Shown here: positions 16,057 to 27,501 of the stretch, piece after piece
How positions within the stretch are numbered: position 1 is the first letter of the stretch
Layout: each line of letters starts with the position of its first letter
Source: Shigella phage KRT47
Reading direction: 5' to 3' (one strand)
Sequence record: MN781580
Length of the DNA: 64,000 bases
Position numbers and translations under genes: made by a program
The notes under the pieces: model-generated
What the model saw: the letters and a program-made list of their open reading frames with translations, nothing else
Told to the model about the DNA's origin: nothing
The model's database searches: none

Positions 16057-16109
16057 CCTCATGTTATGTCAGTAAGACTACTGTAACACAACACGAGGGA
16101 CTTGTAAAC
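16057..16109 (-). repeat. 53-bp exact repeat, copy A (promoter-like GTTTAC plus SD-sequestering hairpin)
   Basis: Identical to 31923-31975; minus strand GTTTAC, 18 nt, TGtTACAGT, then nested inverted repeats CCTCGTGTT/AACATGAGG enclosing the GAGG before the ATG. Confidence 0.8.
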
Positions 16110-18166
16110 TACATCTTGAACTTTTTAGACATTCCGTTGATGTTAACCAAAGAAGCCAAGATTTGAGAAACTTCGTTTTCCTCTTCTTTTGATTCTTCTA
16201 CAAGGAATTGATTAAACCCAGCCATTGGACGAACTTCACCAGTTTCCATTAGATGATCGCCATCATATACCGATTCTTCTAATTGTTCAGAAGGAGGAAC
16301 GATTGTGCCTTCGATTAGATACTTATTATAAGCAGTTTCTTTCATCATGTACGTGCTAACTTTATTAATCTTCAGCAAAATTCCACGCGGTAGAATAACT
16401 TCAGCTTCTGATGGAAATCCTGATAAATGACCTGGAACGATAACTTTAATTCGCTCAGCTCCTTTTATTACCATACCTACGCTAGTTTCAGCATCTTCAT
16501 TCGCATAAGCAGAATGACTGCCCATATGCATTAAATCTTCAGCATCAACAGAACCTTCTCCTTCACCAGAAAATACTGCACCGGAATCATCTAGAGTCAT
16601 ATAGTTTTTACCATGCTCACCGAAGATATTTGGTTTAAGCGATGTTGATACGAAGTTCTTGAAATAAAACATTTTATTTTCAATATTATGACGTAAAGTT
16701 TTAAAGGTAACTTCTTGTCCACGATAAAGCGTAGTTCCTGGAGGAAGAACTGATCCTTTGGCAAAGGCAGAATCCAGCGTCTCGATGTGTTTAATAGCTC
16801 GTTCCATGTATTCTTCACGGGTAGAATCTGGTTTACCCAAGAGGAACGAGTTCATTTCAACATATGAATCTGCACAATAATCTTCAATTACATCAGACTC
16901 AGCCTGAGTTAATCCTTTTGGAGTTACTTCGGTGCTTGCATATTCATATGCCTGAGCAGCAGATTCATTAATCAATTTATAAATGCCATTCATGACAAAT
17001 TGAATAATAGCTACCTTTTCGTCTGGCGTGGCTTTAGAACCTTTAACTAAATCATTGATAATTTTCTTAATAACATCAAAGCTATTAGAAATATTAATGT
17101 CAGCGAGATCGCTCAAAATTTTATCGGTTTTATAATCAAAGAATTCTTTATTCTTTAAATATTCTTGAGAACCTTGATATGTTATATCGCTCTGCAGCTT
17201 GATAGATGGATCACGTAAACGTGCATGGGCCAATGCAATATGATTTCGGAAGCTTTCTAGTTCATAATCGTTAGATTTAAAACGAGAAGCACTTCTCATA
17301 CCACCGATAGCTCCTTTGCTGAAGTTTGAACCAATCTGGATAACGCCAGAGTTCATTGGTCCTTCTGCTTTATATACCGGAACTTTAGATTCAAACTCTT
17401 GATATTTCTTAGCGGCGAAGCTATCACCCTGAAGTGAAGCATCGACAGTAGAATATTGAGCTTGTGCTGCCAATCGACGACTAATTTTAGTTTTCTGAAT
17501 AACAGCTTGATCCGTGCGCTTATCATTTTCTAGAGCAATAGAAGCGGCAACAGCAACAGCTTTAGGAACAGCATTACCTGTTTTAACGTCTACATAAACA
17601 TCACCAACCTTTGATTCAACTTTTGTGAATAACTCAGTTGAAATAGGAGGTACACCTGGAATGTCTTCTAAATTAGCATTTTTACGATAAACCATAATAT
17701 ATGCATACTTTTTATCATAGTCCCAGATTTCCTTTAAAAGAACATATCGACCTGCTCCTTTAGTACGTACTAAACGGTCAGCAATAACTTGCATTTGACG
17801 AGCAGCGCCATTTGTTTTACTTTTTAGTACGCGGAATAGGCATGCGTCAATTTTATACTGTTTCATTGTTTGAAGAGCAGTATCAAAAACCGCATTAATG
17901 ACACCAATTGGATTTCCACCCAAGTTTTTAAGTTTAACTAATGATAGTTTCTCATTAACACCTATCATTACGATATGCATCATTTTATCGCCTGGCTTAA
18001 CGTTTTTATTTGTATCACCGCCAGAGGTGTATGTACAAAATCTAAATCCAGGAAGCACACTTTCTTCACCGGCTTGAATAGCAAAAATTTGAGGTATTTT
18101 ATGCTTAGGATTTAAGTTAACAACCGGCGCCGAAGCGCCGTCAAATAATTCTGTAATAAGTTCCAT
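16109..18166 (-). CDS. alt: Alt-family ADP-ribosyltransferase (capsid-packaged), paralog 1
   Basis: 685 aa; N-terminal MELITE motif (prohead protease site); R-S-E triad LYRGQ / FVSTSL / EAEVILPRG. Confidence 0.85.
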   Translation of the reverse strand: MELITELFDGASAPVVNLNPKHKIPQIFAIQAGEESVLPGFRFCTYTSGGDTNKNVKPGDKMMHIVMIGVNEKLSLVKLKNLGGNPIGVINAVFDTALQTMKQYKIDACLFRVLKSKTNGAARQMQVIADRLVRTKGAGRYVLLKEIWDYDKKYAYIMVYRKNANLEDIPGVPPISTELFTKVESKVGDVYVDVKTGNAVPKAVAVAASIALENDKRTDQAVIQKTKISRRLAAQAQYSTVDASLQGDSFAAKKYQEFESKVPVYKAEGPMNSGVIQIGSNFSKGAIGGMRSASRFKSNDYELESFRNHIALAHARLRDPSIKLQSDITYQGSQEYLKNKEFFDYKTDKILSDLADINISNSFDVIKKIINDLVKGSKATPDEKVAIIQFVMNGIYKLINESAAQAYEYASTEVTPKGLTQAESDVIEDYCADSYVEMNSFLLGKPDSTREEYMERAIKHIETLDSAFAKGSVLPPGTTLYRGQEVTFKTLRHNIENKMFYFKNFVSTSLKPNIFGEHGKNYMTLDDSGAVFSGEGEGSVDAEDLMHMGSHSAYANEDAETSVGMVIKGAERIKVIVPGHLSGFPSEAEVILPRGILLKINKVSTYMMKETAYNKYLIEGTIVPPSEQLEESVYDGDHLMETGEVRPMAGFNQFLVEESKEEENEVSQILASLVNINGMSKKFKM

Positions 18167-18169
18167 GAT

Positions 18170-20266
18170 TTATCCTTGAACGAACTTGTAAGGCATGTTT
18201 GCAATATCTATGCAAGACGCAATAATTCCAAGAGATGATTCTACTTTTTGTTTAACATTTGATGAAACAAATGATGCAAAGTCAACTCTGTCTTCTATTT
18301 CAATATCACCTGTCATTGCAACTACTTCACCAGTTTCCATTAGACGGTCACCGTCATAAATTACTGATTCGGTGAGTTCTTCCGTAGTCATAACTTCAGC
18401 TTGAATGAGTTTTGTATTATTAGATGTTGTTCCGTCATTATTAGAAGCATCAGTTATTTTATTAACTTTGACCATCAATCCTCGTGGTAGAATAACTTCA
18501 GCTTCTGTTGCTATTCCGAGACTTCCTGGATATACAACATTAACTTTATGAGCTCCATCAATTGCCCATCCTATTTGAACTTTAACGTATTCAGGATTTT
18601 CTTTATACGCTCTTATTTCGTTTGGATTAATAGTTATTCCTTCTTCATTTTTATCAACTGTCAATTCATTACGAGCTTCTGGTTCTAAAAGACCAATACC
18701 AGCATGTGTAATTCCAAAACGTCCAAAAATGATAGGAGTTAAAGAAGTAGATACAAAATTTCTGAAATAGAACACTTTATTTTTAACTAGTGCTTCGTAT
18801 ATAGGAGCAGTCATGCTTTGAGCACGATAAACTGTAATGCCTTCTGGTATACGGTCACCATTTTCAAAAGCTGAATCTAAGTTATTTATAGCAGATTCAA
18901 TTTCTTTTTCACTCATTACATCATATCGTTCTGGATTGTAACGACCCAAAAGAAGATTATTGATGTCAGTATATCCTGAACCACAATACTCTCTAATGCC
19001 GCGCTTTTGTGATGGAGTATATTTAGAACCATCACGGGCAATAGTAATATCAATCATTGGACCTGCACCAATTCCAGAAAAGCTGTAAATCATTCTTTTG
19101 AGGAATTTAGTTTTTGCTGCGTTCCAGGAATTTTTAGTCATTTCTTCCCAGACTTCATCTGGCTGTCCTTTACGGGTTTTATTATGTTTATCAAGCCAAT
19201 TATCTTTATATTCTTCAAAGAATTGATTAACAGCTGCTGCGTATTTCTCTAAACATTTTATTGAAGTAGTTGGTTCATTTTTAATCGCATTAAGAATTAC
19301 ATCTTTAATTTTTTCAGAAACTTCATTAACCTCACTTTTTGAAAAGAATTTATAGTCATAATGAAGTTCATCTGCAGTTCCTTCAGCAATAATTTTTGCT
19401 GCTTTAGTTTTAGAAGCCAATGAATTAATTCCAAGTTTCATTTCTTCTGCTTCGGGAATTAAAGGAGCGGTAGCAGGTTTATTGAAATTAGCTGCGGTAG
19501 ATTCATACTTCTGGAATAATTCACTTTCAAATCTAGAAGATTCTAATGATTGACTTTGTGCAATTGCTCTACGGGAAATTTTAACTTTAACGATTACAGC
19601 TTGGTCAGAACGTTTATCATTTTCTTGCGCAATAGATGCAGCAATTGCCTCATTTTTAGTTACTTGAGCTCCAGTATCTTTATTGATATAAACATCACCG
19701 ACCTTCGATTCAACTTTAGTAAAGAGCTCGGTACTAATTTCCGGAACTCCTGGAATGTCTTCTAGTGATACATTTTTGCGATGTATAAGAATATATGCAT
19801 ACTTTTTATCGTAATCCCAGAGTTCCTTAAGAAGGACGTATCTGCCACCTGAACGACTGCGGATAAGTCTATCAGCAATAAGTTGAATTTGACGAGCTTG
19901 ACCAGCAGTTTTAGACTTAAGAATACGGAGCATACAGGCATCAATTTTATACTGACGCATCGTTTGCATTGCAACAGTAAAAACTGAATTGATGTAATTA
20001 ATTGGGCTTGGACCGAGACCTTTTAATTTAGCAATTGAACCTTTAGCAGTTAATGTAAAAGGAACAATATGCATCATTTTATCGCCCATCTTTAAATCGC
20101 GATTAGTATCACCTCCAGATGTATAAGTACATAAACGAAAACCTGGTTGTTCAATTGCGTCATCAACATGAACTGAAAAAATTTGCGGTATTTTCTTCTT
20201 TGGATTTAAGTTTGTAATCGGAAGAGTAGTATCTTCGTCAAATAATTCTGTAATGAGTTCCATCAT
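18170..20266 (-). CDS. alt: Alt-family ADP-ribosyltransferase, paralog 2
   Basis: 698 aa; conserved N-terminal 230 aa with paralog 1, divergent centre, R-S-E triad VYRAQ / FVSTSL / EAEVILPRG. Confidence 0.85.
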   Translation of the reverse strand: MMELITELFDEDTTLPITNLNPKKKIPQIFSVHVDDAIEQPGFRLCTYTSGGDTNRDLKMGDKMMHIVPFTLTAKGSIAKLKGLGPSPINYINSVFTVAMQTMRQYKIDACMLRILKSKTAGQARQIQLIADRLIRSRSGGRYVLLKELWDYDKKYAYILIHRKNVSLEDIPGVPEISTELFTKVESKVGDVYINKDTGAQVTKNEAIAASIAQENDKRSDQAVIVKVKISRRAIAQSQSLESSRFESELFQKYESTAANFNKPATAPLIPEAEEMKLGINSLASKTKAAKIIAEGTADELHYDYKFFSKSEVNEVSEKIKDVILNAIKNEPTTSIKCLEKYAAAVNQFFEEYKDNWLDKHNKTRKGQPDEVWEEMTKNSWNAAKTKFLKRMIYSFSGIGAGPMIDITIARDGSKYTPSQKRGIREYCGSGYTDINNLLLGRYNPERYDVMSEKEIESAINNLDSAFENGDRIPEGITVYRAQSMTAPIYEALVKNKVFYFRNFVSTSLTPIIFGRFGITHAGIGLLEPEARNELTVDKNEEGITINPNEIRAYKENPEYVKVQIGWAIDGAHKVNVVYPGSLGIATEAEVILPRGLMVKVNKITDASNNDGTTSNNTKLIQAEVMTTEELTESVIYDGDRLMETGEVVAMTGDIEIEDRVDFASFVSSNVKQKVESSLGIIASCIDIANMPYKFVQG

Positions 20267-20315
20267 ATCCTCTCTAGTGTTTATTCTATTTATAAAATTA
20301 AAGGCCCGAAGGCCT

Positions 20316-20504
20316 TTAATAATCTATTGGTAAGAGAGTACGATATATTTCAAACTTTGGACCTTTTTCATAGGCATCAAATGTTTCTGTGAATTTATTA
20401 TAAGCATATGCATCTATAAATTCAATCATAATTTGTGATACAGAAGTAGAAACATCTCCACCTTCTTTTTGAGCAACGACAATTGTTTCTAAGTAAGCTT
20501 TCAT
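20316..20504 (-). CDS. Hypothetical small protein
   Basis: 62 aa ORF between ligase and alt, stop overlaps ligase start region. Confidence 0.4.
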   Translation of the reverse strand: MKAYLETIVVAQKEGGDVSTSVSQIMIEFIDAYAYNKFTETFDAYEKGPKFEIYRTLLPIDY

Positions 20505-21964
20505 AGACCAGTTACCTCATGAAAATCACCAAATACATCCTCGAATGTATTAGCTTTAGTTTTATCTTCACGTAAACGAATCGCAATTGGAAGAAATAAT
20601 TTTACGTAATCAGTGCGGCCATCAGATTTTAGCCAACCGTTGCATTCGCACTCTAGAATTTTTCCAATATAATAATTTTGGTTTTCCATAATGCGAGTAC
20701 GGTCAAGTTCATGTGATTTTACACCGGCTTTATCTTTTAAGCCTGAACCAGCATTTACTTTAATTTTTCCACACTCTGATTCAAGAATAAATCCACCTGC
20801 TTTAGTAGGGTCTTTACGGTGAGGATAAATTCCTACAATTTTTAAATCAACATCAATTACTTCTTTAAATTTATAGAGATTTTTTGAACGAGCATTTTCC
20901 CACAATCCATCGGTATTTTTGAGAATAATACCTTCAAGACCTTGGTCAATATACTTTTTATAAATTACCTTAGCTTCATCTAGGTTATTTACTACCTGGT
21001 TTTCAATTAAAATTACTTTATCATATCCTGATGTCATTTGTTCTAGTTTAGAAAAACGTACATCATATTTTAAACGAAACGCCGGAAGACCGTATATTTC
21101 TACCAACGGGACATAATCCCAGACCTGAAACTTCATGCATTTGGCTTCTTTTTCGGAAATGGTTCCTTTTAAGGATTTATTGGCGATTCCATTAGAAGCA
21201 GTACGAGATTCCGCTACTTCGGCGAATTCTTTAGCTTTACTAATTTCAGGATAAGCATCAAAAAGAAAATCTAGGCCTTCTGGTTCCTTTTTAACTTGCT
21301 CATGGTATACCAATTCGCCATCAATTAACACACCTTCTGGATGAATCTGGCGGGCTTCAGCAGTCATTTTGATTAATTCTTCCTTAAGAAGATCTAATCC
21401 TAGATATTCATTACCAGCTCGTGATAAAAGACGAACATCATCTAATTCATCGCCTCGGACTTCAGCAAAACACCGGGCTCCATCTGCTTTTAACTGCGCA
21501 AAGGCTGGAAACTTGATATTCTTACTAATGCCCTTTTCATCATAAGAACTTGCCAGCATTTGAGGTTGTTCAGGAATTAAACCTGGCCAAACTTTGTTTG
21601 CAATAGATACTGAAGCACCGCATTCAAGGTCTCGCATCATCACTCGACGCAAAACTTCAACATCATCCTTTTTACCATCAGTGATATATCCAGTTAATTC
21701 CTCAATTGCAGCATTTCCAGTCAATTTCCGAGTAGCTAACGTGAATTCAATGAAATCAAGCATATCGGTAATGGTCAGCATTCCAAAACTCTGGGTAGCA
21801 ATACCAGGTTTAGGCCATTTCTTGATATAATACTGTAACCCACGAGAATAAGTCAGACGATATACTCGTTTAAGCAATTCATTATCTTTATTCTTTTCAA
21901 GAATTGCTTGCTTCTGCTTAGTTGATCCAATAGATGCTATTTCATTCAGAATTTTAAGAATCAT
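20501..21964 (-). CDS. 30: ATP-dependent DNA ligase gp30
   Basis: 487 aa; adenylation motif KADGARC. Confidence 0.9.
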   Translation of the reverse strand: MILKILNEIASIGSTKQKQAILEKNKDNELLKRVYRLTYSRGLQYYIKKWPKPGIATQSFGMLTITDMLDFIEFTLATRKLTGNAAIEELTGYITDGKKDDVEVLRRVMMRDLECGASVSIANKVWPGLIPEQPQMLASSYDEKGISKNIKFPAFAQLKADGARCFAEVRGDELDDVRLLSRAGNEYLGLDLLKEELIKMTAEARQIHPEGVLIDGELVYHEQVKKEPEGLDFLFDAYPEISKAKEFAEVAESRTASNGIANKSLKGTISEKEAKCMKFQVWDYVPLVEIYGLPAFRLKYDVRFSKLEQMTSGYDKVILIENQVVNNLDEAKVIYKKYIDQGLEGIILKNTDGLWENARSKNLYKFKEVIDVDLKIVGIYPHRKDPTKAGGFILESECGKIKVNAGSGLKDKAGVKSHELDRTRIMENQNYYIGKILECECNGWLKSDGRTDYVKLFLPIAIRLREDKTKANTFEDVFGDFHEVTGL

Positions 21965-22230
21965 TGTTCATCCTTCAGAGTTTGATTTACAGCTCTATTA
22001 TAAATCAATTCATCATTAAGCTCAGTTAAAGACCTATGATATGTAGTTCTAACTTTATTTCCTTGCATCCAGTGCTTGATATAAATGAAACCTTGCTCTA
22101 CACATTTTTTAAAAATTCGTTCGTCTTTTTGAGCTCGGAATTCTGGATTGCATCTAAAGAATTGATTTACGTGACCGTAATCACGCGTAGTATTACCTTC
22201 ATTTTCATAAATAGTGTGAACGACAAACAT
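21961..22230 (-). CDS. Hypothetical protein (30.1 position)
   Basis: 89 aa ORF, translationally coupled. Confidence 0.5.
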   Translation of the reverse strand: MFVVHTIYENEGNTTRDYGHVNQFFRCNPEFRAQKDERIFKKCVEQGFIYIKHWMQGNKVRTTYHRSLTELNDELIYNRAVNQTLKDEQ

Positions 22231-23069
22231 TAGAATGCTCCTTGGAAAATATTATCACCACAAGTAGGTCTATTATACAAATACTCTATGCCACCAGGTT
22301 TAATATAGTTCCATGTCTGAAACGGATGTGTCTGATATGGATGATATAGATGATTATAAGGATTAAATCCAGGCGTTCTCCAGGTAGTGTTCCAACGAAA
22401 AGAATCGTTTTTAACCATCTTCTCAATTAAATCTTTTATAGCTTTTTCACTATCAAAACTTTCTTTATTTTCCTTTGGTGAAAAAAGCTTATTTTCTACA
22501 TCATTCCATGTATAAACCCGCTGAGCAGTTTTTGGAATATTGTCACGCTCTCCTCGAGCCATCCAATAAACAGGAACATTTAATATTTCACTCGCATGAT
22601 CGCAGTGGTGAGCAAGATCGTCAATATAACAAATTACGTTATATTTCTCTTTTGCCTTTTTGAATAACTCTTCTTTTGAAGAATCATGACCACACATCAT
22701 TACTTCTGAGAAGGCACCAGGAAAAAGAGCATTCAAATTAAATTGACGATTCAACAGAGCGTCAATAGAATCACCCAATGCTGTAACAGCTACAAAATTA
22801 TAATCTTCTTTTAATTTGTTAATTACACACAGGGCATCTTTATATGGAGACAAGTAACGAATAAAATCTGATCGATTGTATTTTTCAATTAGCTTGACAC
22901 CGAGTTCTTCATCACAATTAAAGAGTTTACCTGGAGAAATAAATTTCTCATCTTGGATCATTTTTAAAATATGTTCTAACGGAAGATTATATTTCTGAGC
23001 AAAATAAGGAAGACCTGATTGCCAGCTTAAACATACTCCATCAATATCAGTTAAAATAGTAGGCTTCAT
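22230..23069 (-). CDS. HAD-superfamily hydrolase-like protein (30.2 position)
   Basis: 279 aa; N-terminal DxDGV motif (ILTDIDGVCL) and later YIDDLAHH typical of HAD phosphatases. Confidence 0.55.
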   Translation of the reverse strand: MKPTILTDIDGVCLSWQSGLPYFAQKYNLPLEHILKMIQDEKFISPGKLFNCDEELGVKLIEKYNRSDFIRYLSPYKDALCVINKLKEDYNFVAVTALGDSIDALLNRQFNLNALFPGAFSEVMMCGHDSSKEELFKKAKEKYNVICYIDDLAHHCDHASEILNVPVYWMARGERDNIPKTAQRVYTWNDVENKLFSPKENKESFDSEKAIKDLIEKMVKNDSFRWNTTWRTPGFNPYNHLYHPYQTHPFQTWNYIKPGGIEYLYNRPTCGDNIFQGAF

Positions 23070-23530
23070 AGAGAGTCTCTTAATAGGTTTAACACATCAA
23101 TAAATTCAGCTTCGGTTAGTATTGTATCATCTTTTGTTAGACCACTAGCCATGCTGTGCTTCAAAACTTTTCCTTTCGAGGCTTGTAATGCATCGCGAAA
23201 GCCCTTGTTTTGGAACGCTGCTTCAAAATATGCATTTGTGTATAATTCTTTCCACGCTGGAGAGTATCTTGAAAACGGAACTCCAAGCCAGAAGAGGGTC
23301 CCACGGTCCTGAGCTCTAGCATAAGACCTTCCAGCTTGTTGGGCGGCAATCCCGGATAACCCAAATATACGTCTTTGCTGTTCAACATTTTTCACCTTAC
23401 ATCCTTGGAGGAATCCTTCGAGACCTCCAAATTGAATGCCATCCATAACGAAAGGCCATTGGGCGAAATTACTTAATGCACATGATGGCCATTTAAAATT
23501 GCTTCTTATCTCTAGTTCAGACATTTTCAA
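23066..23530 (-). CDS. NADAR / YbiA-like (DUF1768) domain protein (30.3 position)
   Basis: 154 aa; segment LSNFAQWPFVMDGIQFGGLEGFLQGCKV resembles YbiA FSNFAAWPIKVDGKTWPTSEHYFQAQKF. Confidence 0.55.
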   Translation of the reverse strand: MKMSELEIRSNFKWPSCALSNFAQWPFVMDGIQFGGLEGFLQGCKVKNVEQQRRIFGLSGIAAQQAGRSYARAQDRGTLFWLGVPFSRYSPAWKELYTNAYFEAAFQNKGFRDALQASKGKVLKHSMASGLTKDDTILTEAEFIDVLNLLRDSL

Positions 23531-23723
23531 TACTTATAATTTCAACATCAGCCCAATGACCATAGCAAGGAAGACGAAATTCAACTGGCCAGTTAGGGTC
23601 CTTTTCTAATATAATAGACTTAACTTGTGGTTCTTCATGTTCATCGGTATACGGACCTTTATACGTTACTTTATATGTGACTTTAATGTATTGAATTCCA
23701 AAAATCTTATTAATTATATTCAT
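23517..23723 (-). CDS. Hypothetical protein
   Basis: 68 aa ORF in operon-like packing. Confidence 0.4.
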   Translation of the reverse strand: MNIINKIFGIQYIKVTYKVTYKGPYTDEHEEPQVKSIILEKDPNWPVEFRLPCYGHWADVEIISIENV

Positions 23724-23917
23724 ACTAATTCCTTTAATCCGTAAATAGGAGATAATTCATCGCCCATACGAAGGTCTTCATTTCCATCTACCCAGGAAAC
23801 AATATAAGCCTCTTTTATTTGAATACCACTCCATTTAAATGGAGGTAGAACCTTAGAAATTAATCCAGGTATACCAACTCCCTTTAATTCAACAGTTTGA
23901 CCTAAAAAGAATTTCAT
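23720..23917 (-). CDS. Hypothetical protein
   Basis: 65 aa ORF, overlapping stop/start. Confidence 0.4.
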   Translation of the reverse strand: MKFFLGQTVELKGVGIPGLISKVLPPFKWSGIQIKEAYIVSWVDGNEDLRMGDELSPIYGLKELV

Positions 23918-24204
23918 TAGAACCTCATCTGAAAACCGTGCGATTTAACATTACCGCCGCCAATATCAGAAATATTAATTTCGCGCGCAATTGAAGGATC
24001 AATGTCAATTTCACGATTGAGTTTAGTGATAGCTAAAGTATCGCGCCCATTTACAGTACGGAACTCTAAAGGACATACTACATTAACGTAGTTTTTAATC
24101 GATTCACTGGTAGGTTGCAAATGAACAGGAAGGTCTTTAGGCGCCTTAGAGAAAACCACTTCACAGAAATTTTTGCGGGTATCAAAATAAGTAGTCATAA
24201 ACAT
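23917..24204 (-). CDS. Hypothetical protein
   Basis: 95 aa ORF. Confidence 0.45.
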   Translation of the reverse strand: MFMTTYFDTRKNFCEVVFSKAPKDLPVHLQPTSESIKNYVNVVCPLEFRTVNGRDTLAITKLNREIDIDPSIAREINISDIGGGNVKSHGFQMRF

Positions 24205-24245
24205 AGTATTTTCCTCAGTAAGGGGCCGAAGCCCCTCATTTTATT

Positions 24246-24623
24246 TTAAATATCAAATTCGTTAAGAACTACATCAAAGATTGCTTCAAGATGCTCAGGT
24301 TTAGCTCTATTACTCAGAATATGACGAATCCAAGTTTTAACCAGAAGCTTGCGATTAACGCCATTCCAGCAAGGATGAGTCCCTAAATCGCGTTGACGAA
24401 AATCATCATCCAGAGCGATTTTAAAAGAAGAACCTTCCATTGTGATTGAAACCGTGATGCCATTTTCAAATCGCATATAAACGTAGTTAGGAGTCATATA
24501 CTGTTCAATTTCGCATACTGATCCATTTTGATGTTTCCAGAGGCAAATAGTATCAATAGAACCTGCAATACCATTAGAAACATATTTACGTTCAAAGTTA
24601 ATGTAGTTCATTTTATTCTCCAA
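24246..24623 (-). CDS. Hypothetical protein
   Basis: 125 aa ORF with early-type promoter upstream. Confidence 0.5.
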   Translation of the reverse strand: MENKMNYINFERKYVSNGIAGSIDTICLWKHQNGSVCEIEQYMTPNYVYMRFENGITVSITMEGSSFKIALDDDFRQRDLGTHPCWNGVNRKLLVKTWIRHILSNRAKPEHLEAIFDVVLNEFDI

Positions 24624-24647
24624 GATGTTTAATTGCGGTACAGGTAT

Positions 24648-24676
24648 ATAATATCATATCCTGTACCAAAGTAAAC
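24648..24676 (-). promoter_or_regulatory. T4-type early promoter
   Basis: Minus strand GTTTAC, 17 nt, TGaTATTAT; -10 lies in loop of 8-bp inverted repeat GGTACAGG/CCTGTACC (24637-24667). Confidence 0.45.
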
Positions 24677-24678
24677 AA

Positions 24679-25011
24679 TTATTTTACTACTTTCCAATGC
24701 TGCATGTCAAGTTTACCAACTTTTTTCATCTTCTCAATTAAGCGTTCGGCACGTTGGCGAGCTGTAACATAATACCATTCACCTAATTCATTTTGTTCAA
24801 TTTTTCCAACGATTACTGTATTCAATTCATAAATCCAACCAGTAAAGAAATTATGAACTTGAATTGTAAAGGTGAAATCTGTTCCCATACCTTCTGTTGT
24901 TTCTACTTCAATAATATCACCTTCAACTGCCATTAAGAACCACATAGTTTCATCATATTTACCGTTGAAGCATTTAGTTTTAACTGCAGCGTTCAGATTA
25001 ATCGTTTTCAT
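24679..25011 (-). CDS. Hypothetical protein
   Basis: 110 aa ORF with early-type promoter upstream. Confidence 0.5.
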   Translation of the reverse strand: MKTINLNAAVKTKCFNGKYDETMWFLMAVEGDIIEVETTEGMGTDFTFTIQVHNFFTGWIYELNTVIVGKIEQNELGEWYYVTARQRAERLIEKMKKVGKLDMQHWKVVK

Positions 25012-25038
25012 TTTATTCTCCTTTGTTTGTGTAAGATA

Positions 25039-25068
25039 ATACTATCACAAAGGAACCATACTGTAAAC
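25039..25068 (-). promoter_or_regulatory. T4-type early promoter
   Basis: Minus strand GTTTAC, 18 nt, TGaTAGTAT; flanked by 6-bp inverted repeat TTTGTG/CACAAA. Confidence 0.45.
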
Positions 25069-25084
25069 AACTTTGTGCAATCTT

Positions 25085-25116
25085 TGGAAAATAAAAAAGG
25101 ACTCCCGAAGGAGTCC
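25085..25116 (-). terminator. Intrinsic terminator
   Basis: Hairpin AGGACTCCCGAAGGAGTCCT followed by U-run on minus strand. Confidence 0.55.
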
Positions 25117-25121
25117 TCAAC

Positions 25122-25298
25122 TTATGCTTTCTGCTTACCAAAACGAGAAGCATCATCTCGAAGAACCGCACGTGCTCGGCGCATGATCTTCTCAACAGTT
25201 TGATTGATACGAGAGTTCGACCCACGCTTGTAACCAGCGCGTTTAGAATCACCAACTTTCTTTTCAACTGCTTTCTTTGCTTTAGCTTGTTTTGCCAT
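25122..25298 (-). CDS. Small basic protein
   Basis: Likely start MAKQAKAKKAVEKK inside ORF-track 25122-25340; lysine/arginine rich. Confidence 0.4.
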   Translation of the reverse strand: MAKQAKAKKAVEKKVGDSKRAGYKRGSNSRINQTVEKIMRRARAVLRDDASRFGKQKA

Positions 25299-25586
25299 TA
25301 TAAATTCTCTTTTAAATGAAAATGCAGGACTTATTGGCATTGCCTGCGCAAGCCCTCAAGGGGTACTTAGGTTTTGAATATTTACCGACAGGATAACCAT
25401 AAACCTCGTCATCATACCACCAAGACTTACACAGATAACACTTTTCTGACGCATGATAGTAACATTCAAGAGGTACACCGTAAAACTGCCGGGGTCTTAA
25501 AACTATAATGATTCGCAAATCATTAATCAGACAGTTCGATGGCTCCTCGATTTTAGCTCACACTAAGGCAGTGAATCTCCAATAAA

Positions 25587-25835
25587 TTACTTCAGTGTTA
25601 CCACAAAGTGACGAACTGCTTTTCGTGCAGCAGAAGCCAGAGGCTTAGCATATTTAAGTTCATCTTTTTCCTGAAGCTCAGCAGCTAATGCAGTTTGAGC
25701 AGGATTCAGATGTTTGAAATAACGCAGGATTTCAAGAGCTTCGGCTTCAACATCAATAGATGCGCCATAGTTTTCGTGACCATTATTCCATGCGTTTCGT
25801 TGCAGTTCAAGAGCGTGTTGTAATTGTTTAATCAT
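25587..25835 (-). CDS. rIII: rIII lysis inhibition accessory protein
   Basis: 82 aa ORF at T4 rIII position immediately downstream of gene 31. Confidence 0.6.
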   Translation of the reverse strand: MIKQLQHALELQRNAWNNGHENYGASIDVEAEALEILRYFKHLNPAQTALAAELQEKDELKYAKPLASAARKAVRHFVVTLK

Positions 25836-25982
25836 TTAAAAATTCTCGTTAGAGATTAAAACTCGGTAGTCACGTTCTTCTGAATTTCATCTTCTTTCGA
25901 CAGATCTCTCAGTTGTAGACTACCACATAGAATTGTTCGGTTAACTTATTATTCCGACACCCAATTCATATTATTATTTATA

Positions 25983-26318
25983 TCACTTATAAAGACACGG
26001 AATAGCTTTATAGTGACAAGTAACGAATTTTTGTTTAATTTCTTTTGGCTGCTTAAGACCCAGAGCTACAAAAGGATGCGGAACGTTTCGAATTTGACCA
26101 ACTGGAAGAGAAGTCAAATCACCAACTTCGCAGAAACCTTCAGGAACATCAGGACCAACAGAGTGAACTACACACAGTTCAGGAACTTCACCTTGAACAC
26201 GTTTACCGATAATAAGTCCTGATTCTGTAACTTCTTCATCACCGGCTTGTGCAGGTTCAGAAACTAAAATAACATATTCACCGACAGCACGAATTGGTAG
26301 CTGTTGTACTTCAGACAT
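25983..26318 (-). CDS. 31: Co-chaperonin gp31 (GroES analogue)
   Basis: 111 aa; T4 gp31-like sequence [30 protein letters not shown]. Confidence 0.85.
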
Positions 26319-26374
26319 CGTTTTTCCTTTTTGTTAGCAGATGAATTAATAATAACAAATAATTCTTAAAGCAT

Positions 26375-26683
26375 TTATTTACCAATAAATTGAAGCAAAT
26401 GCTCAACTTTCATACCATTAACAGAAATCAATTTGTCAATAGAAAAACCTCGCCATGCACCAAGCTCAACATCAAATACTGGAATCATATCAGTAGATTC
26501 TTTCCGAGCAGATTCAGTCAATTTACCAGTTTGCATGGTTGGCATAAAGTCCGCATCACGAGTGCCTTTCATAGTACGAATAGTACCATCAGACTTTTCA
26601 AAAACCACGTTTGAAATACCCATGGACAATTTAGTTTTCAAAATTTCACGAATTGCTACTTTCTGTTCAGTTGTCAGTTTCAT
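26375..26683 (-). CDS. Hypothetical protein (31.1 position)
   Basis: 102 aa ORF. Confidence 0.5.
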   Translation of the reverse strand: MKLTTEQKVAIREILKTKLSMGISNVVFEKSDGTIRTMKGTRDADFMPTMQTGKLTESARKESTDMIPVFDVELGAWRGFSIDKLISVNGMKVEHLLQFIGK

Positions 26684-26920
26684 TTATTTACCTATTACAG
26701 TTTTAATATGGGTTGTTCCACGCTCTTTAAGAGTGGAAAGCAATTTTTGGCATTTTTCTAAATCAGATTTCCAACTATACGGTCTATCAATACTAGTCCA
26801 ATCAGTTTTATAATACTGTTTCCATTTAGAGAAAAAATATTTCTTATACTCTACAGCAAATGAGATGTTCTCGTTAGAATAAGAACTAATTGCTGTGAGC
26901 TTTACCAAACGAAATTTCAT
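26684..26920 (-). CDS. Hypothetical protein (31.2 position)
   Basis: 78 aa ORF. Confidence 0.45.
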   Translation of the reverse strand: MKFRLVKLTAISSYSNENISFAVEYKKYFFSKWKQYYKTDWTSIDRPYSWKSDLEKCQKLLSTLKERGTTHIKTVIGK

Positions 26921-27501
26921 TATTCACCACAGAATTCGTTGATATTTTCCCAGTTTAACTTATTCAAGTTTTTCTTAGGAACATTAAACACTTCAATACC
27001 TGCATTTCGCAGAATATCATCCCAGCCAGGTTTATTTTTATCGTATGTTTCGCAATAAACCAGCTTTTTAATACCAGATTGAGCTATCGCTTTTGCACAA
27101 TCTGGACAAGGAGAAAGTGTTACATACATAGTAGCACCTTCAATAGAAGAACCATTTCGTGCAGCAAACAAAATTGCATTTAGTTCAGCATGAATTTCAT
27201 TTTTAGACGACCATTCAGAGTGAGCGCTACGGTGTTCTTTCGCCAAGACAAAGCGATCAGTTGAACCAAATGATACGCATTCAGGCTTATGGCCTTGGAT
27301 GATAGTATGTTTAGGTTTATTCAGCAACCAACCTTGCTCAGCGGCATAATCACAACAGTTCACACCTCCTGCGGGTGAACCATTATACCCAGTAGAAATA
27401 ATACGTCCATTCTTTTCAATTACTGCTCCTACCTTCCAGGAGCAACATTTTGATTCTTGTGATACTAAATATGCAATTTGAAGTACTGTACTCGCTTTCA
27501 T
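26920..27501 (-). CDS. cd: dCMP deaminase
   Basis: 193 aa; zinc-binding deaminase motifs HAELNAI and PCPDC. Confidence 0.9.
   Translation of the reverse strand: MKASTVLQIAYLVSQESKCCSWKVGAVIEKNGRIISTGYNGSPAGGVNCCDYAAEQGWLLNKPKHTIIQGHKPECVSFGSTDRFVLAKEHRSAHSEWSSKNEIHAELNAILFAARNGSSIEGATMYVTLSPCPDCAKAIAQSGIKKLVYCETYDKNKPGWDDILRNAGIEVFNVPKKNLNKLNWENINEFCGE

Follow-up and report, generated by a model that had tools for sequence, protein, structure and literature searches.

Introduction

A pair of overlapping genes near the DNA ligase gene of Shigella phage KRT47 raises the question whether their products act together or only lie side by side. An earlier note on this DNA described the pair as a HAD-like hydrolase and a relative of E. 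coli YbiA, and suggested that they might form a module for nucleotide salvage or for counter-defence against DarT-type toxins. The window analysed here is the whole stretch of 64,000 nucleotides (MN781580). The account that best explains the locus, and in which we place good though not complete confidence, is that one gene product (AdfN) acts against the toxin DarT1, that the other (gp30.2) is an NT5C-type phosphatase, and that the two do not constitute a module.

Gene order and genomic context

The window belongs to a Tequatrovirus (T4-type) genome, and megablast matched the region in hundreds of Tequatrovirus genomes with 95–98% identity. Both open reading frames described before are present on the minus strand at the positions given for them, and they correspond to T4 30.2 and 30.3 as orthologues, with 97% identity to T4 in both cases. 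The T4 gene order is reproduced, with 30.4, 30.3, 30.2 and 30.1 preceding gene 30 (ligase), all co-oriented (Table 1). From 30.4 to 30 the genes are tightly packed, with overlapping start and stop codons between successive genes; 30.1 shares 1 nt with the 30.2 stop (TAATG), and at its other end an ATGA overlap joins it to the ligase start. The pair had been placed adjacent to the DNA ligase gene, and both genes are indeed near it, but 30.2 does not adjoin it directly, as the 89-aa gene 30.1 intervenes.

A scan of positions 20000–27000 for promoters and terminators did not rise above background (28 sites where 24.6 were expected, and 5 where 3.9 were), and an Rfam scan of positions 20000–26000 returned no match. 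Short plus-strand open reading frames within the interval (65 aa or shorter) were considered as genes and rejected as unsupported.

Table 1. Genes and protein features at the locus, with positions in the window
Feature	Position	Strand	Basis or remark
Gene 30.4, 68 aa	23517..23723	-	PHROG 2042; directly upstream of adfN
Gene 30.3 / adfN, 152-aa gp30.3-type NADAR DNA ADP-ribosylglycohydrolase (predicted)	23066..23524	-	T4 identity, PF08010, hhalign to YbiA
AdfN codons E36 to K43 (LEGFLQGCK), with both catalytic residues altered in the T4 work	23396..23419	-	
AdfN H123 codon	23156-23158	-	
Gene 30.2, 279-aa HAD-superfamily NT5C-like phosphatase (predicted)	22230..23069	-	start overlaps adfN stop (ATGA)
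gp30.2 residues 1-200, HAD Rossmann-like core and inserted helical (C1-type) cap (predicted)	22470..23069	-	pLDDT, conserved motifs
gp30.2 motif I, D8-I-D10-G-V	23034-23048	-	
gp30.2 residues 201-279, variable C-terminal tail	22233..22469	-	low pLDDT, length variation
Gene 30.1, DUF3045, 89 aa	21961..22230	-	Pfam PF11243, E 1.2e-64
Gene 30, ATP-dependent DNA ligase, 487 aa	20501..21964	-	matches T4 gene 30 by order and length

Identity of AdfN and its relationship to NADAR proteins

The length of 154 aa first given for the 30.3 product reflects the reading of an ORF finder from a TTG at 23530 (23066–23530). The start annotated in T4 is an ATG, here at 23524 and 2 codons downstream of the TTG, which yields 152 aa, and with this start the published numbering of E36 and K43 fits exactly. 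The protein has the same length as T4 AdfN (gp30.3; NP_049816), is identical to it at 148 of 152 residues (97%) and occupies the same slot between 30.4 and 30.2; the differences K11R, I59L, F104I and M125I (window to T4) spare the conserved catalytic positions. Pfam PF08010 (Phage_30_3) was matched with 231.8 bits (cutoff 36; E 2.6e-69) across profile positions 1–138 of 138. The C-terminus (...EAEFIDVLNLLRDSL) is identical to that of T4 and the C-terminal helix is intact at 152 aa, whereas in the inactive RB69 allele this helix has been lost by a frameshift.

The YbiA-like segment noticed in this open reading frame proved to be real by BLASTP, hhalign and a profile search of the PDB. BLASTP aligned AdfN to E. 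coli K-12 YbiA with 34% identity over 56 residues (pairwise E 1e-5), the aligned segments being SNFAQWPFVMDG in the window and SNFAAWPIKVDG in YbiA. With the AdfN family profile, hhalign gave 93.7% probability to YbiA (E 2e-7, 102 columns), and YbiA (2b3w) was the sole PDB sequence matched (E 0.0017). The Pfam NADAR model (PF08719) was matched by 17 of 43 family members (best E 1.5e-7); AdfN of the window gave no direct match to it at E up to 1, and phmmer of AdfN against PDB sequences returned chance-level matches only. A core of the form SNF-x-x-x-P/F...DG...E-x-x-x-Q-x-x-K is common to AdfN, the NADAR domain of DarG1 and E. coli YbiA (PF08719).

Among the 43 aligned family sequences, E36 and H123 occur in all and K43 in 42, and AdfN of the window has all three. 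Catalytic roles of E36 and K43 were reported for T4 AdfN (PMC11825919), from which the NADAR fold of AdfN is also taken. A histidine in the last strand is a hallmark of phage NADARs (PMC11125620), whereas YbiA carries Glu and DarG1-type NADARs carry Asp there. The NADAR of the DarG1 antitoxin and YbiA are reported to carry out the reaction of AdfN on guanine-linked ADP-ribose in DNA (PMC11125620, PMC11543638); unlike the DarG1 antitoxin, the phage protein is an orphan without a partner toxin. The 152-aa protein is assigned to the gp30.3 branch of the NADAR superfamily.

Function of AdfN against DarTG1

That the NADAR protein serves as an anti-DarT counter-defence enzyme has already been published, with experimental proof for the 97%-identical T4 AdfN. 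T4 AdfN strips ADP-ribose from guanine in DNA in vitro (PMC11825919; PMC11125620), and the activity is reduced in the E36A and K43A mutants (PMC11825919). An adfN deletion mutant of T4 is sensitive to DarTG1, and T4 requires the gene to grow on hosts with DarTG1 (PMC11825919, PMC11125620). In the transposon screen HIDEN-SEQ of T4 (preprint 10.1101/2025.11.20.689424), 30.3 showed a log2FC of -7.25 on a DarTG1 host (adjusted p 0), and its loss had no fitness cost without DarTG1. In T4, the host toxin DarT1 adds ADP-ribose to guanine in phage DNA, AdfN cuts the ADP-ribose–guanine bond as a NADAR-fold glycohydrolase, and this removal allows phage replication in DarTG1-carrying cells. Given the 97% identity, the intact catalytic residues and the full length, AdfN of the window probably removes guanine-linked ADP-ribose and confers resistance to DarTG1.

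In uninfected E. coli, AdfN(T4) gives no rescue from DarT1 (PMC11825919; PMC11125620), so the mechanism depends on T-even infection. The same failure to detoxify DarT1 lends some weight to the idea that the main natural substrates of AdfN, besides or instead of DNA, are soluble ADP-ribose derivatives, intermediates of the riboflavin pathway, as with YbiA, or ADP-ribose adducts that the phage itself makes through Alt and Mod. Alt paralogues lie nearby, and a comparative-genomics survey (PMC9503650) argued mainly for low-molecular-weight ADP-ribose derivatives as substrates of phage NADARs and described their early expression together with ADP-ribosyltransferases. However, two independent studies reported removal of ADP-ribose from DNA in vitro together with a strong DarTG1-specific phenotype of T4, and the absence of any fitness cost of 30.3 loss outside DarTG1 hosts also speaks against a main substrate of this kind, which is considered quite improbable. 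Removal of ADP-ribose from phage DNA, already shown for T4 AdfN, is retained as its function.

HAD motifs and predicted fold of gp30.2

The DxDGV motif at the start of the 279-aa open reading frame, which had been read as a HAD signature, is not a chance occurrence: its two Asp residues are invariant in 98 homologues, and a HAD fold is predicted for the protein. The N-terminus reads MKPTILTDIDGVCLSW, with DxDGV at residues 8–12. Each of D8, D10, K132, D150 and D151 was found in all 98 aligned homologues, and position 96 is T in 95 of them and S in three, which makes a complete HAD set of motif I (DxD), motif II (T96), motif III (K132) and motif IV (D150–D151).

Structure prediction returned a HAD fold. 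A single-sequence AlphaFold run (pLDDT 38.6) was superseded by an AF2 model built with the 98-sequence alignment (mean pLDDT 84; block means of 82–98 over residues 1–200 and at least 93 for residues 1–190), in which a Rossmann-like HAD core carries a helical cap inserted after motif I. The tail (201–279) is rich in Trp, Tyr and Pro and has block-mean pLDDT values of 40–60, with one helix block at 86; most of it is missing in 40 of the 98 homologues because these are 235 aa long or shorter. The C-terminal DNIFQGAF was considered as a sliding-clamp-binding peptide because of a resemblance and rejected, since the end is unconserved among homologues.

Profile searches, which the earlier note proposed for both proteins, recognised AdfN through PF08010 but gave no Pfam HAD match for gp30.2 itself; against Pfam and NCBIfam at E up to 1, gp30.2 matched no model. 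Within its family, PF00702 was matched by 9 of 35 members and PF13419 by 6 of 35, all sub-threshold, and phmmer of gp30.2 against PDB sequences gave chance-level matches only. The family comprises about 1,400 cluster representatives at E up to 1e-3. All homologues with a visible source come from T4-like phages, and when the family profile was used in a second, word-index search for homologues, no annotated relatives outside this group were added. From the model and the conserved motifs, the 279-aa protein is a HAD-fold phosphatase by predicted activity.

Similarity of gp30.2 to 5'(3')-deoxyribonucleotidases

The best PDB match of the gp30.2 family profile was the 5'(3')-deoxyribonucleotidase 2jao (E 0.035). 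In this alignment the invariant W16 of the family faces a Phe of 2jao that stacks on the base. The closest structures to the gp30.2 model are NT5C enzymes, with 3bwv as the top match (163 residues aligned), and the name 5' nucleotidase is frequent among viral structural neighbours that lie outside its own family. The NT5C family (human cdN and mdN; S. epidermidis 3bwv; PF06941) has the same HAD core with a helical cap and, as in gp30.2, DxDGV followed by an aromatic residue 8 positions past the nucleophile, together with the T, K and DD set. In contrast to these enzymes, to which it is only 14–21% identical, gp30.2 of the T-even branch continues into an additional tail of about 80 residues.

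Pfam NT5C (PF06941) was matched by 6 of 35 family members (best E 1.2e-4), and its 24.8-bit gathering cutoff was passed only by the distant relatives P0360 (25.7 bits) and P0372 (37.3 bits). For gp30.2 of the window there was no match to PF06941 at E up to 1. As it lacks a profile match of its own and only distant relatives pass, gp30.2 is described as NT5C-like and not as a scored member of the family; the proposed link comes from the predicted fold, marginal profile matches and chains of relatives.

A literature search found no paper mentioning gp30.2. The protein would be a HAD phosphatase of the 5'(3')-deoxyribonucleotidase (NT5C) type that depends on Mg. In it, D8 would act as the nucleophile that accepts the phospho group, D10 would serve as acid/base residue, and the helical cap would restrict substrates to small molecules. 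(Deoxy)nucleoside monophosphates are the most likely substrates, both substrate and role being inferred, and nucleotide salvage is a possible role for 30.2 alone.

Do 30.2 and 30.3 form a module?

The proposed functional pairing of 30.2 with 30.3 found no support in transposon and genomic data: 30.2 is neutral on a DarTG1 host, and the adjacency is not conserved. In HIDEN-SEQ (Data S6), 30.2 had a log2FC of -0.12 (p 0.61) on the DarTG1 host, where exactly two genes were significant, 30.3 and 30.4. Insertions in 30.2 showed no phenotype in the LB essentiality, DarTG1 host and LB versus M9 data, although a transposon screen leaves room for a redundant or subtle part of 30.2 in ADP-ribose handling. 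Among 77 loci with a 30.2 homologue, gp30.3 was directly adjacent in 22 and was not found within 6 kb in 41. Seen from the other gene, a 30.2 homologue was present within 6 kb in 21 of 80 gp30.3 loci and absent in 59, and in several T4-like genomes the two genes are about 60 kb apart.

In a joint function, gp30.2 might dephosphorylate or detoxify ADP-ribose-derived products from AdfN, Alt, ModA or ModB, or might supply the additional T-even factor required by AdfN; a T-even cofactor of AdfN has been postulated (PMC11825919). The two genes are co-oriented with an ATGA overlap, two Alt-type ADP-ribosyltransferase genes lie about 2–6 kb away, and the 22 adjacent loci include Tequatrovirus, Mosigvirus-type and some Acinetobacter T4-like phages (among them locus L002). 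Each gene is present in about 1,450–1,500 phage records with similar host-genus counts, but such co-occurrence is expected for two genes widespread in the same phage family. The screen in which 30.2 was neutral recovered 30.3 strongly, the genes are mostly unlinked as counted above, and AdfN alone removes ADP-ribose from DNA in vitro. A joint function is thus regarded as very improbable, and 30.2 as the missing cofactor of AdfN was rejected on the HIDEN-SEQ data. The evidence does not point to a common role: 30.2 and 30.3 would be two separate genes whose adjacency was inherited within one branch of T4-like phages.

Association of 30.2 with the DNA ligase gene

The position of 30.2 tracks the ligase gene more than it tracks 30.3. 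A ligase gene was found within 6 kb in 71 of the 77 loci, and in 67 of them it lay directly downstream in the same orientation, compared with 22 for an adjacent 30.3, and the link is kept where the neighbourhood is without 30.3 (loci L004 and L005). One reading is that gp30.2 acts together with the ligase, either by cleaning nick termini (a 3'-phosphatase activity would be one example) or by disposing of a by-product of ligation such as AMP; this would account for the position of its gene a short way upstream of gene 30 in T4-like phages. A weak PHROG match of gp30.2 to polynucleotide kinase/phosphatase (E 0.002) also favours this reading. However, HAD helical caps usually exclude polymer substrates, and gp30.2 has such a cap after motif I and finds its best-matching structures among capped small-molecule enzymes.

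Pnkp has no cap and works on the ends of polynucleotides. Compared with the 3'-phosphatase domain of T4 PseT (Pnkp), gp30.2 has the helical insertion after motif I, and its match to the T4 Pnkp phosphatase is shorter (126–129 residues against 163 for 3bwv) and of lower Z than those to capped enzymes. T4 already possesses the 3'-phosphatase PseT, and two related loci, L002 and L005, have a gene assigned to AAA_33 plus HAD_PNKP in the neighbourhood of 30.2. Moreover, the ligase is essential whereas 30.2 is non-essential, the four most distant 30.2 loci (25–28% identity) have no ligase nearby, and the linkage could be plain inherited gene order. Processing of nick termini or of a ligase by-product by gp30.2 is hence judged unlikely, and the NT5C-type phosphatase is preferred.

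In a broader, tentative and rather doubtful proposal, gp30.2 would represent a phage HAD family without a Pfam or NCBIfam model and would work as a partner of the ligase, or else in nucleotide metabolism linked to replication. Its task might be to clear a specific (deoxy)nucleotide that is harmful or non-canonical, or a by-product of ligation, and its variable aromatic tail could dock to a replication or repair complex. In a weaker variant, gp30.2 might redundantly back up counter-defence related to ADP-ribose or NAD, so that single-gene transposon screens miss it.

Gene 30.4 and implications

The last 8 nt of 30.4 are shared with the adfN start (ATGTCTGA). This gene is confined to T-even-type phages, where it always adjoins 30.3, and besides 30.3 it is the sole DarTG1-conditional gene of T4 (HIDEN-SEQ Data S6). 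It is thus 30.4, and not 30.2, that is the only other T4 gene mattering on DarTG1 hosts, which bears on the T-even-only action of AdfN(T4).

For the counter-defence part of the initial idea, adfN is a published phage counter-defence gene, and its anti-DarT role was already known. The transposon data add a clear negative result, namely that the anti-DarTG1 function does not include 30.2. T4 30.2, usually recorded as a hypothetical protein, can now be described as a predicted HAD-fold, NT5C-like phosphatase with a complete active site. Two leads emerge from the locus: the position of 30.2, strongly tied to that of the ligase gene, and the part of 30.4 on DarTG1 hosts. With an intact copy of adfN, the phage studied here should resist DarTG1-type defence.

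Gene content of the locus

The genome in the window is that of a T4-type phage (Tequatrovirus). Around 30.2 and 30.3, a 1.9 kb segment has matches in 673 phage records, of which 340 show 95–99% identity, and Escherichia phage ECP2301 gives a full-length match to a 24 kb stretch of the window (97.5% identity). From 30.4 through 30 the genes are packed end to end, with the junctions ATGTCTGA, ATGA, TAATG and ATGA in this order, and these overlaps are consistent with a single co-translated run. Scans for promoters and terminators around the locus gave background level only, and an Rfam scan matched no family.

Features of the locus in the window
Feature	Position	Strand	Assigned against	Remarks
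First Alt-type gene	16109-18166	-		685 aa; tandem with alt
alt (second Alt-type gene)	18170-20266	-	T4 reference	698 aa
alt.1	20316-20504	-	T4 reference	
30	20501-21964	-	T4 reference	DNA ligase
30.1	21961-22230	-	T4 reference	DUF3045
30.2	22230-23069	-	T4 reference	97% identical to T4 gp30.2
30.2 tail (residues 201-279)	22233-22469	-		low-confidence, Trp/Tyr/Pro-rich
30.3 (adfN)	23066-23524	-	T4 reference	97% identical to T4 gp30.3
30.3' reading frame	23161-23388	-		open
30.4	23517-23723	-	T4 reference	68 aa; directly upstream of adfN

The reading frame of the T4-annotated 30.3' (an out-of-frame internal ORF of 75 aa) is also open here. Both Alt-type paralogues are full length and share 40% identity; alt has only 70% identity to T4 Alt and is divergent in its middle part. 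In the T4 reference, the first copy has decayed to alt.-1 and alt.-2.

AdfN and resistance to DarTG1

Judged by its sequence, 30.3 is adfN, the orthologue of an already characterised protein. Johannesman et al. 2025 (PMC11825919) mapped gene 30.3 as the T-even determinant of resistance to the host defence DarTG1 and renamed it adfN. AdfN(T4), once purified, strips ADP-ribose from DNA modified by DarT1; the substitutions E36A and K43A and a C-terminal truncation impair it (PMC11825919). In the T4 transposon-insertion screen HIDEN-SEQ (10.1101/2025.11.20.689424), 30.3 was dispensable on plain K-12, and insertions were lost on a DarTG1 host (log2FC -7.25, Data S6). The anti-DarT counter-defence that the earlier note had suggested for the pair of proteins is, for the NADAR protein, already published on the 97% identical T4 orthologue (PMC11825919; HIDEN-SEQ). 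In T4, DarT1 attaches ADP-ribose to guanine of single-stranded phage DNA and blocks replication, and AdfN hydrolyses the guanine-ADP-ribose N-glycosidic bond so that replication resumes; both steps would proceed likewise in this phage.

Counted from a TTG, the ORF has the 154 aa first assigned to it; the T4 start is an ATG two codons downstream, giving 152 aa and placing the published catalytic residues E36 and K43 on LEGFLQGCK. Pfam Phage_30_3 (PF08010) covers AdfN end to end (E 2.6e-69). The expected match to Pfam NADAR (PF08719) was not obtained directly for the window protein and appeared in 17 of 43 homologues. The suspected YbiA-like segment gave 34% identity over 56 residues in BLASTP (pairwise E 1e-5), the YbiA structure 2b3w was the sole PDB match of the AdfN family profile (E 0.0017), and hhalign of this profile with YbiA reached 93.7% probability over 102 columns; on these alignments the likeness is genuine, though local. 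All 43 sequences have E36 and H123, and 42/43 have K43. This histidine is the reported mark of phage-branch NADARs, whereas the same site is Glu in YbiA and Asp in DarG1-type proteins (PMC11125620).

The DarTG1 sensitivity of RB69 is due to a frameshift that costs AdfN its last 15 residues (PMC11825919), whereas adfN in the window is full length. Many close relatives in public data are truncated to 83–126 aa or apparently fused (homologous proteins P0104-P0107, P0113-P0118, P0121, P0159, P0201), the fusions being with neighbouring small genes, as suggested by Pfam PF06919, PF11097 and PF06019. This pattern is reminiscent of the inactivating frameshift of RB69 and suggests that natural T-even phages often lose or break adfN.

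The upstream gene 30.4

Gene 30.4 shares 8 nt with the start of adfN. On the DarTG1 host, 30.3 and 30.4 (log2FC -1.79, adjusted p 0.014) were the only conditionally essential T4 genes (HIDEN-SEQ Data S6); 30.4 is not discussed in the main text of either DarTG1-resistance paper (PMC11825919; HIDEN-SEQ). Polarity or translational coupling could account for its signal. An additional T-even protein has also been proposed, since AdfN(T4) works only in T-even infection (PMC11825919), and 30.4 could be this protein. Gene 30.4 is restricted to T-even-type phages (710 records) and adjoins T-even-type adfN in 13/13 loci.

Relation of 30.2 to 30.3 and to the ligase gene

The suggestion that 30.2 and 30.3 form a functional module was not supported, and the evidence indicates that they do not act together. 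On the DarTG1 host 30.2 was neutral (log2FC -0.12, p 0.61; HIDEN-SEQ Data S6); in T4 it is non-essential, with insertions at 72/72 sites, and neutral in LB versus M9 (log2FC -0.10; HIDEN-SEQ). Gene order was counted in viral loci sampled per query, up to 80 each (77 for 30.2, 80 for gp30.3), which share ancestry, so that the counts are not independent observations. In 36/77 loci a gp30.3 gene is no more than 6 kb from the 30.2 homologue, and in 22/77 the two are directly adjacent; conversely, only 21/80 gp30.3 loci have a 30.2 homologue nearby. Several T4-like genomes, such as IMGVR_UViG_2974718797 (loci L030 and L156), have 30.2 adjoining the ligase gene and gp30.3 about 60 kb away. The two genes, each present in about 1,450–1,500 phage records, have similar counts per host genus, which only shows that both are widespread in the T4-type family.

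A ligase gene lies within 6 kb of 30.2 in 71/77 sampled loci (L010-L086); in 67/77 it is the next gene downstream, on the strand of 30.2. The pairing is kept in two divergent loci with no gp30.3 called nearby, and an Acinetobacter phage retains the order 30.3, 30.2, ligase. The loci with ligase directly downstream appear to span several host genera of T4-like phages, with differing small genes around some of them; the four most distant loci (25–28% identity) have no ligase gene nearby.

gp30.2 as a predicted nucleotidase

The DxDGV motif recognised near the start of the 279-aa gp30.2 is DIDGV at residues 8-12. D8, D10, K132, D150 and D151 occur in every one of 98 homologues, and position 96 holds T or S; in the alignment, D8/D10, position 96, K132 and D150/D151 correspond to HAD motifs I to IV, and a second Asp is a typical phosphatase feature. 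An AlphaFold model built with the alignment has a mean pLDDT of 84, with no block mean below 93 across residues 1-190. The best PDB match of the family profile was the 5'(3')-deoxyribonucleotidase 2jao (E 0.035), in which a Phe, presumably stacking on the base, aligns with the invariant W16. No Pfam or NCBIfam model matched window gp30.2; the matches of family members to Hydrolase, NT5C and HAD_2 of Pfam stayed below threshold. An exhaustive profile search gave 1,433 cluster representatives (E <=1e-3), two distant members of which passed the Pfam NT5C cutoff; the protein is therefore termed NT5C-like and not scored as an NT5C member. PHROG lists its family (420) without a function, and "5' nucleotidase" is a frequent name among viral structural neighbours outside the family. 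From sequence and model, gp30.2 is predicted to be a nucleotidase-type HAD phosphatase.

The last ~80 residues are aromatic and Pro-rich, poorly predicted and absent from many homologues; 58/98 exceed 235 aa and are long enough for this tail, and 16/98 carry G..IEYL..QPT, a motif that is conserved in part. The tail may be a docking segment. In the wider family, P0281 (591 aa), P0345 (660 aa), P0233 (430 aa) and P0270 (365 aa) carry large additional fused regions, for which a Pfam scan gave no match; these partners might hint at the function of the family.

Implications

A few database records already name gp30.2 family members HAD, 5'(3')-deoxyribonucleotidase or "haloacid halogenase". AdfN is the orthologue of a characterised protein, and the locus holds no new kind of system. 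The analysis establishes the active site and fold of gp30.2 at the level of conserved motifs and predicted structure. D8 would attack the phosphate of a small phospho-ester under the cap and D10 would protonate the leaving group, after which water would free the phosphate; we infer that (deoxy)nucleoside monophosphates are the likeliest substrates. The proximity of the ligase gene is the best lead to the biological role of gp30.2.
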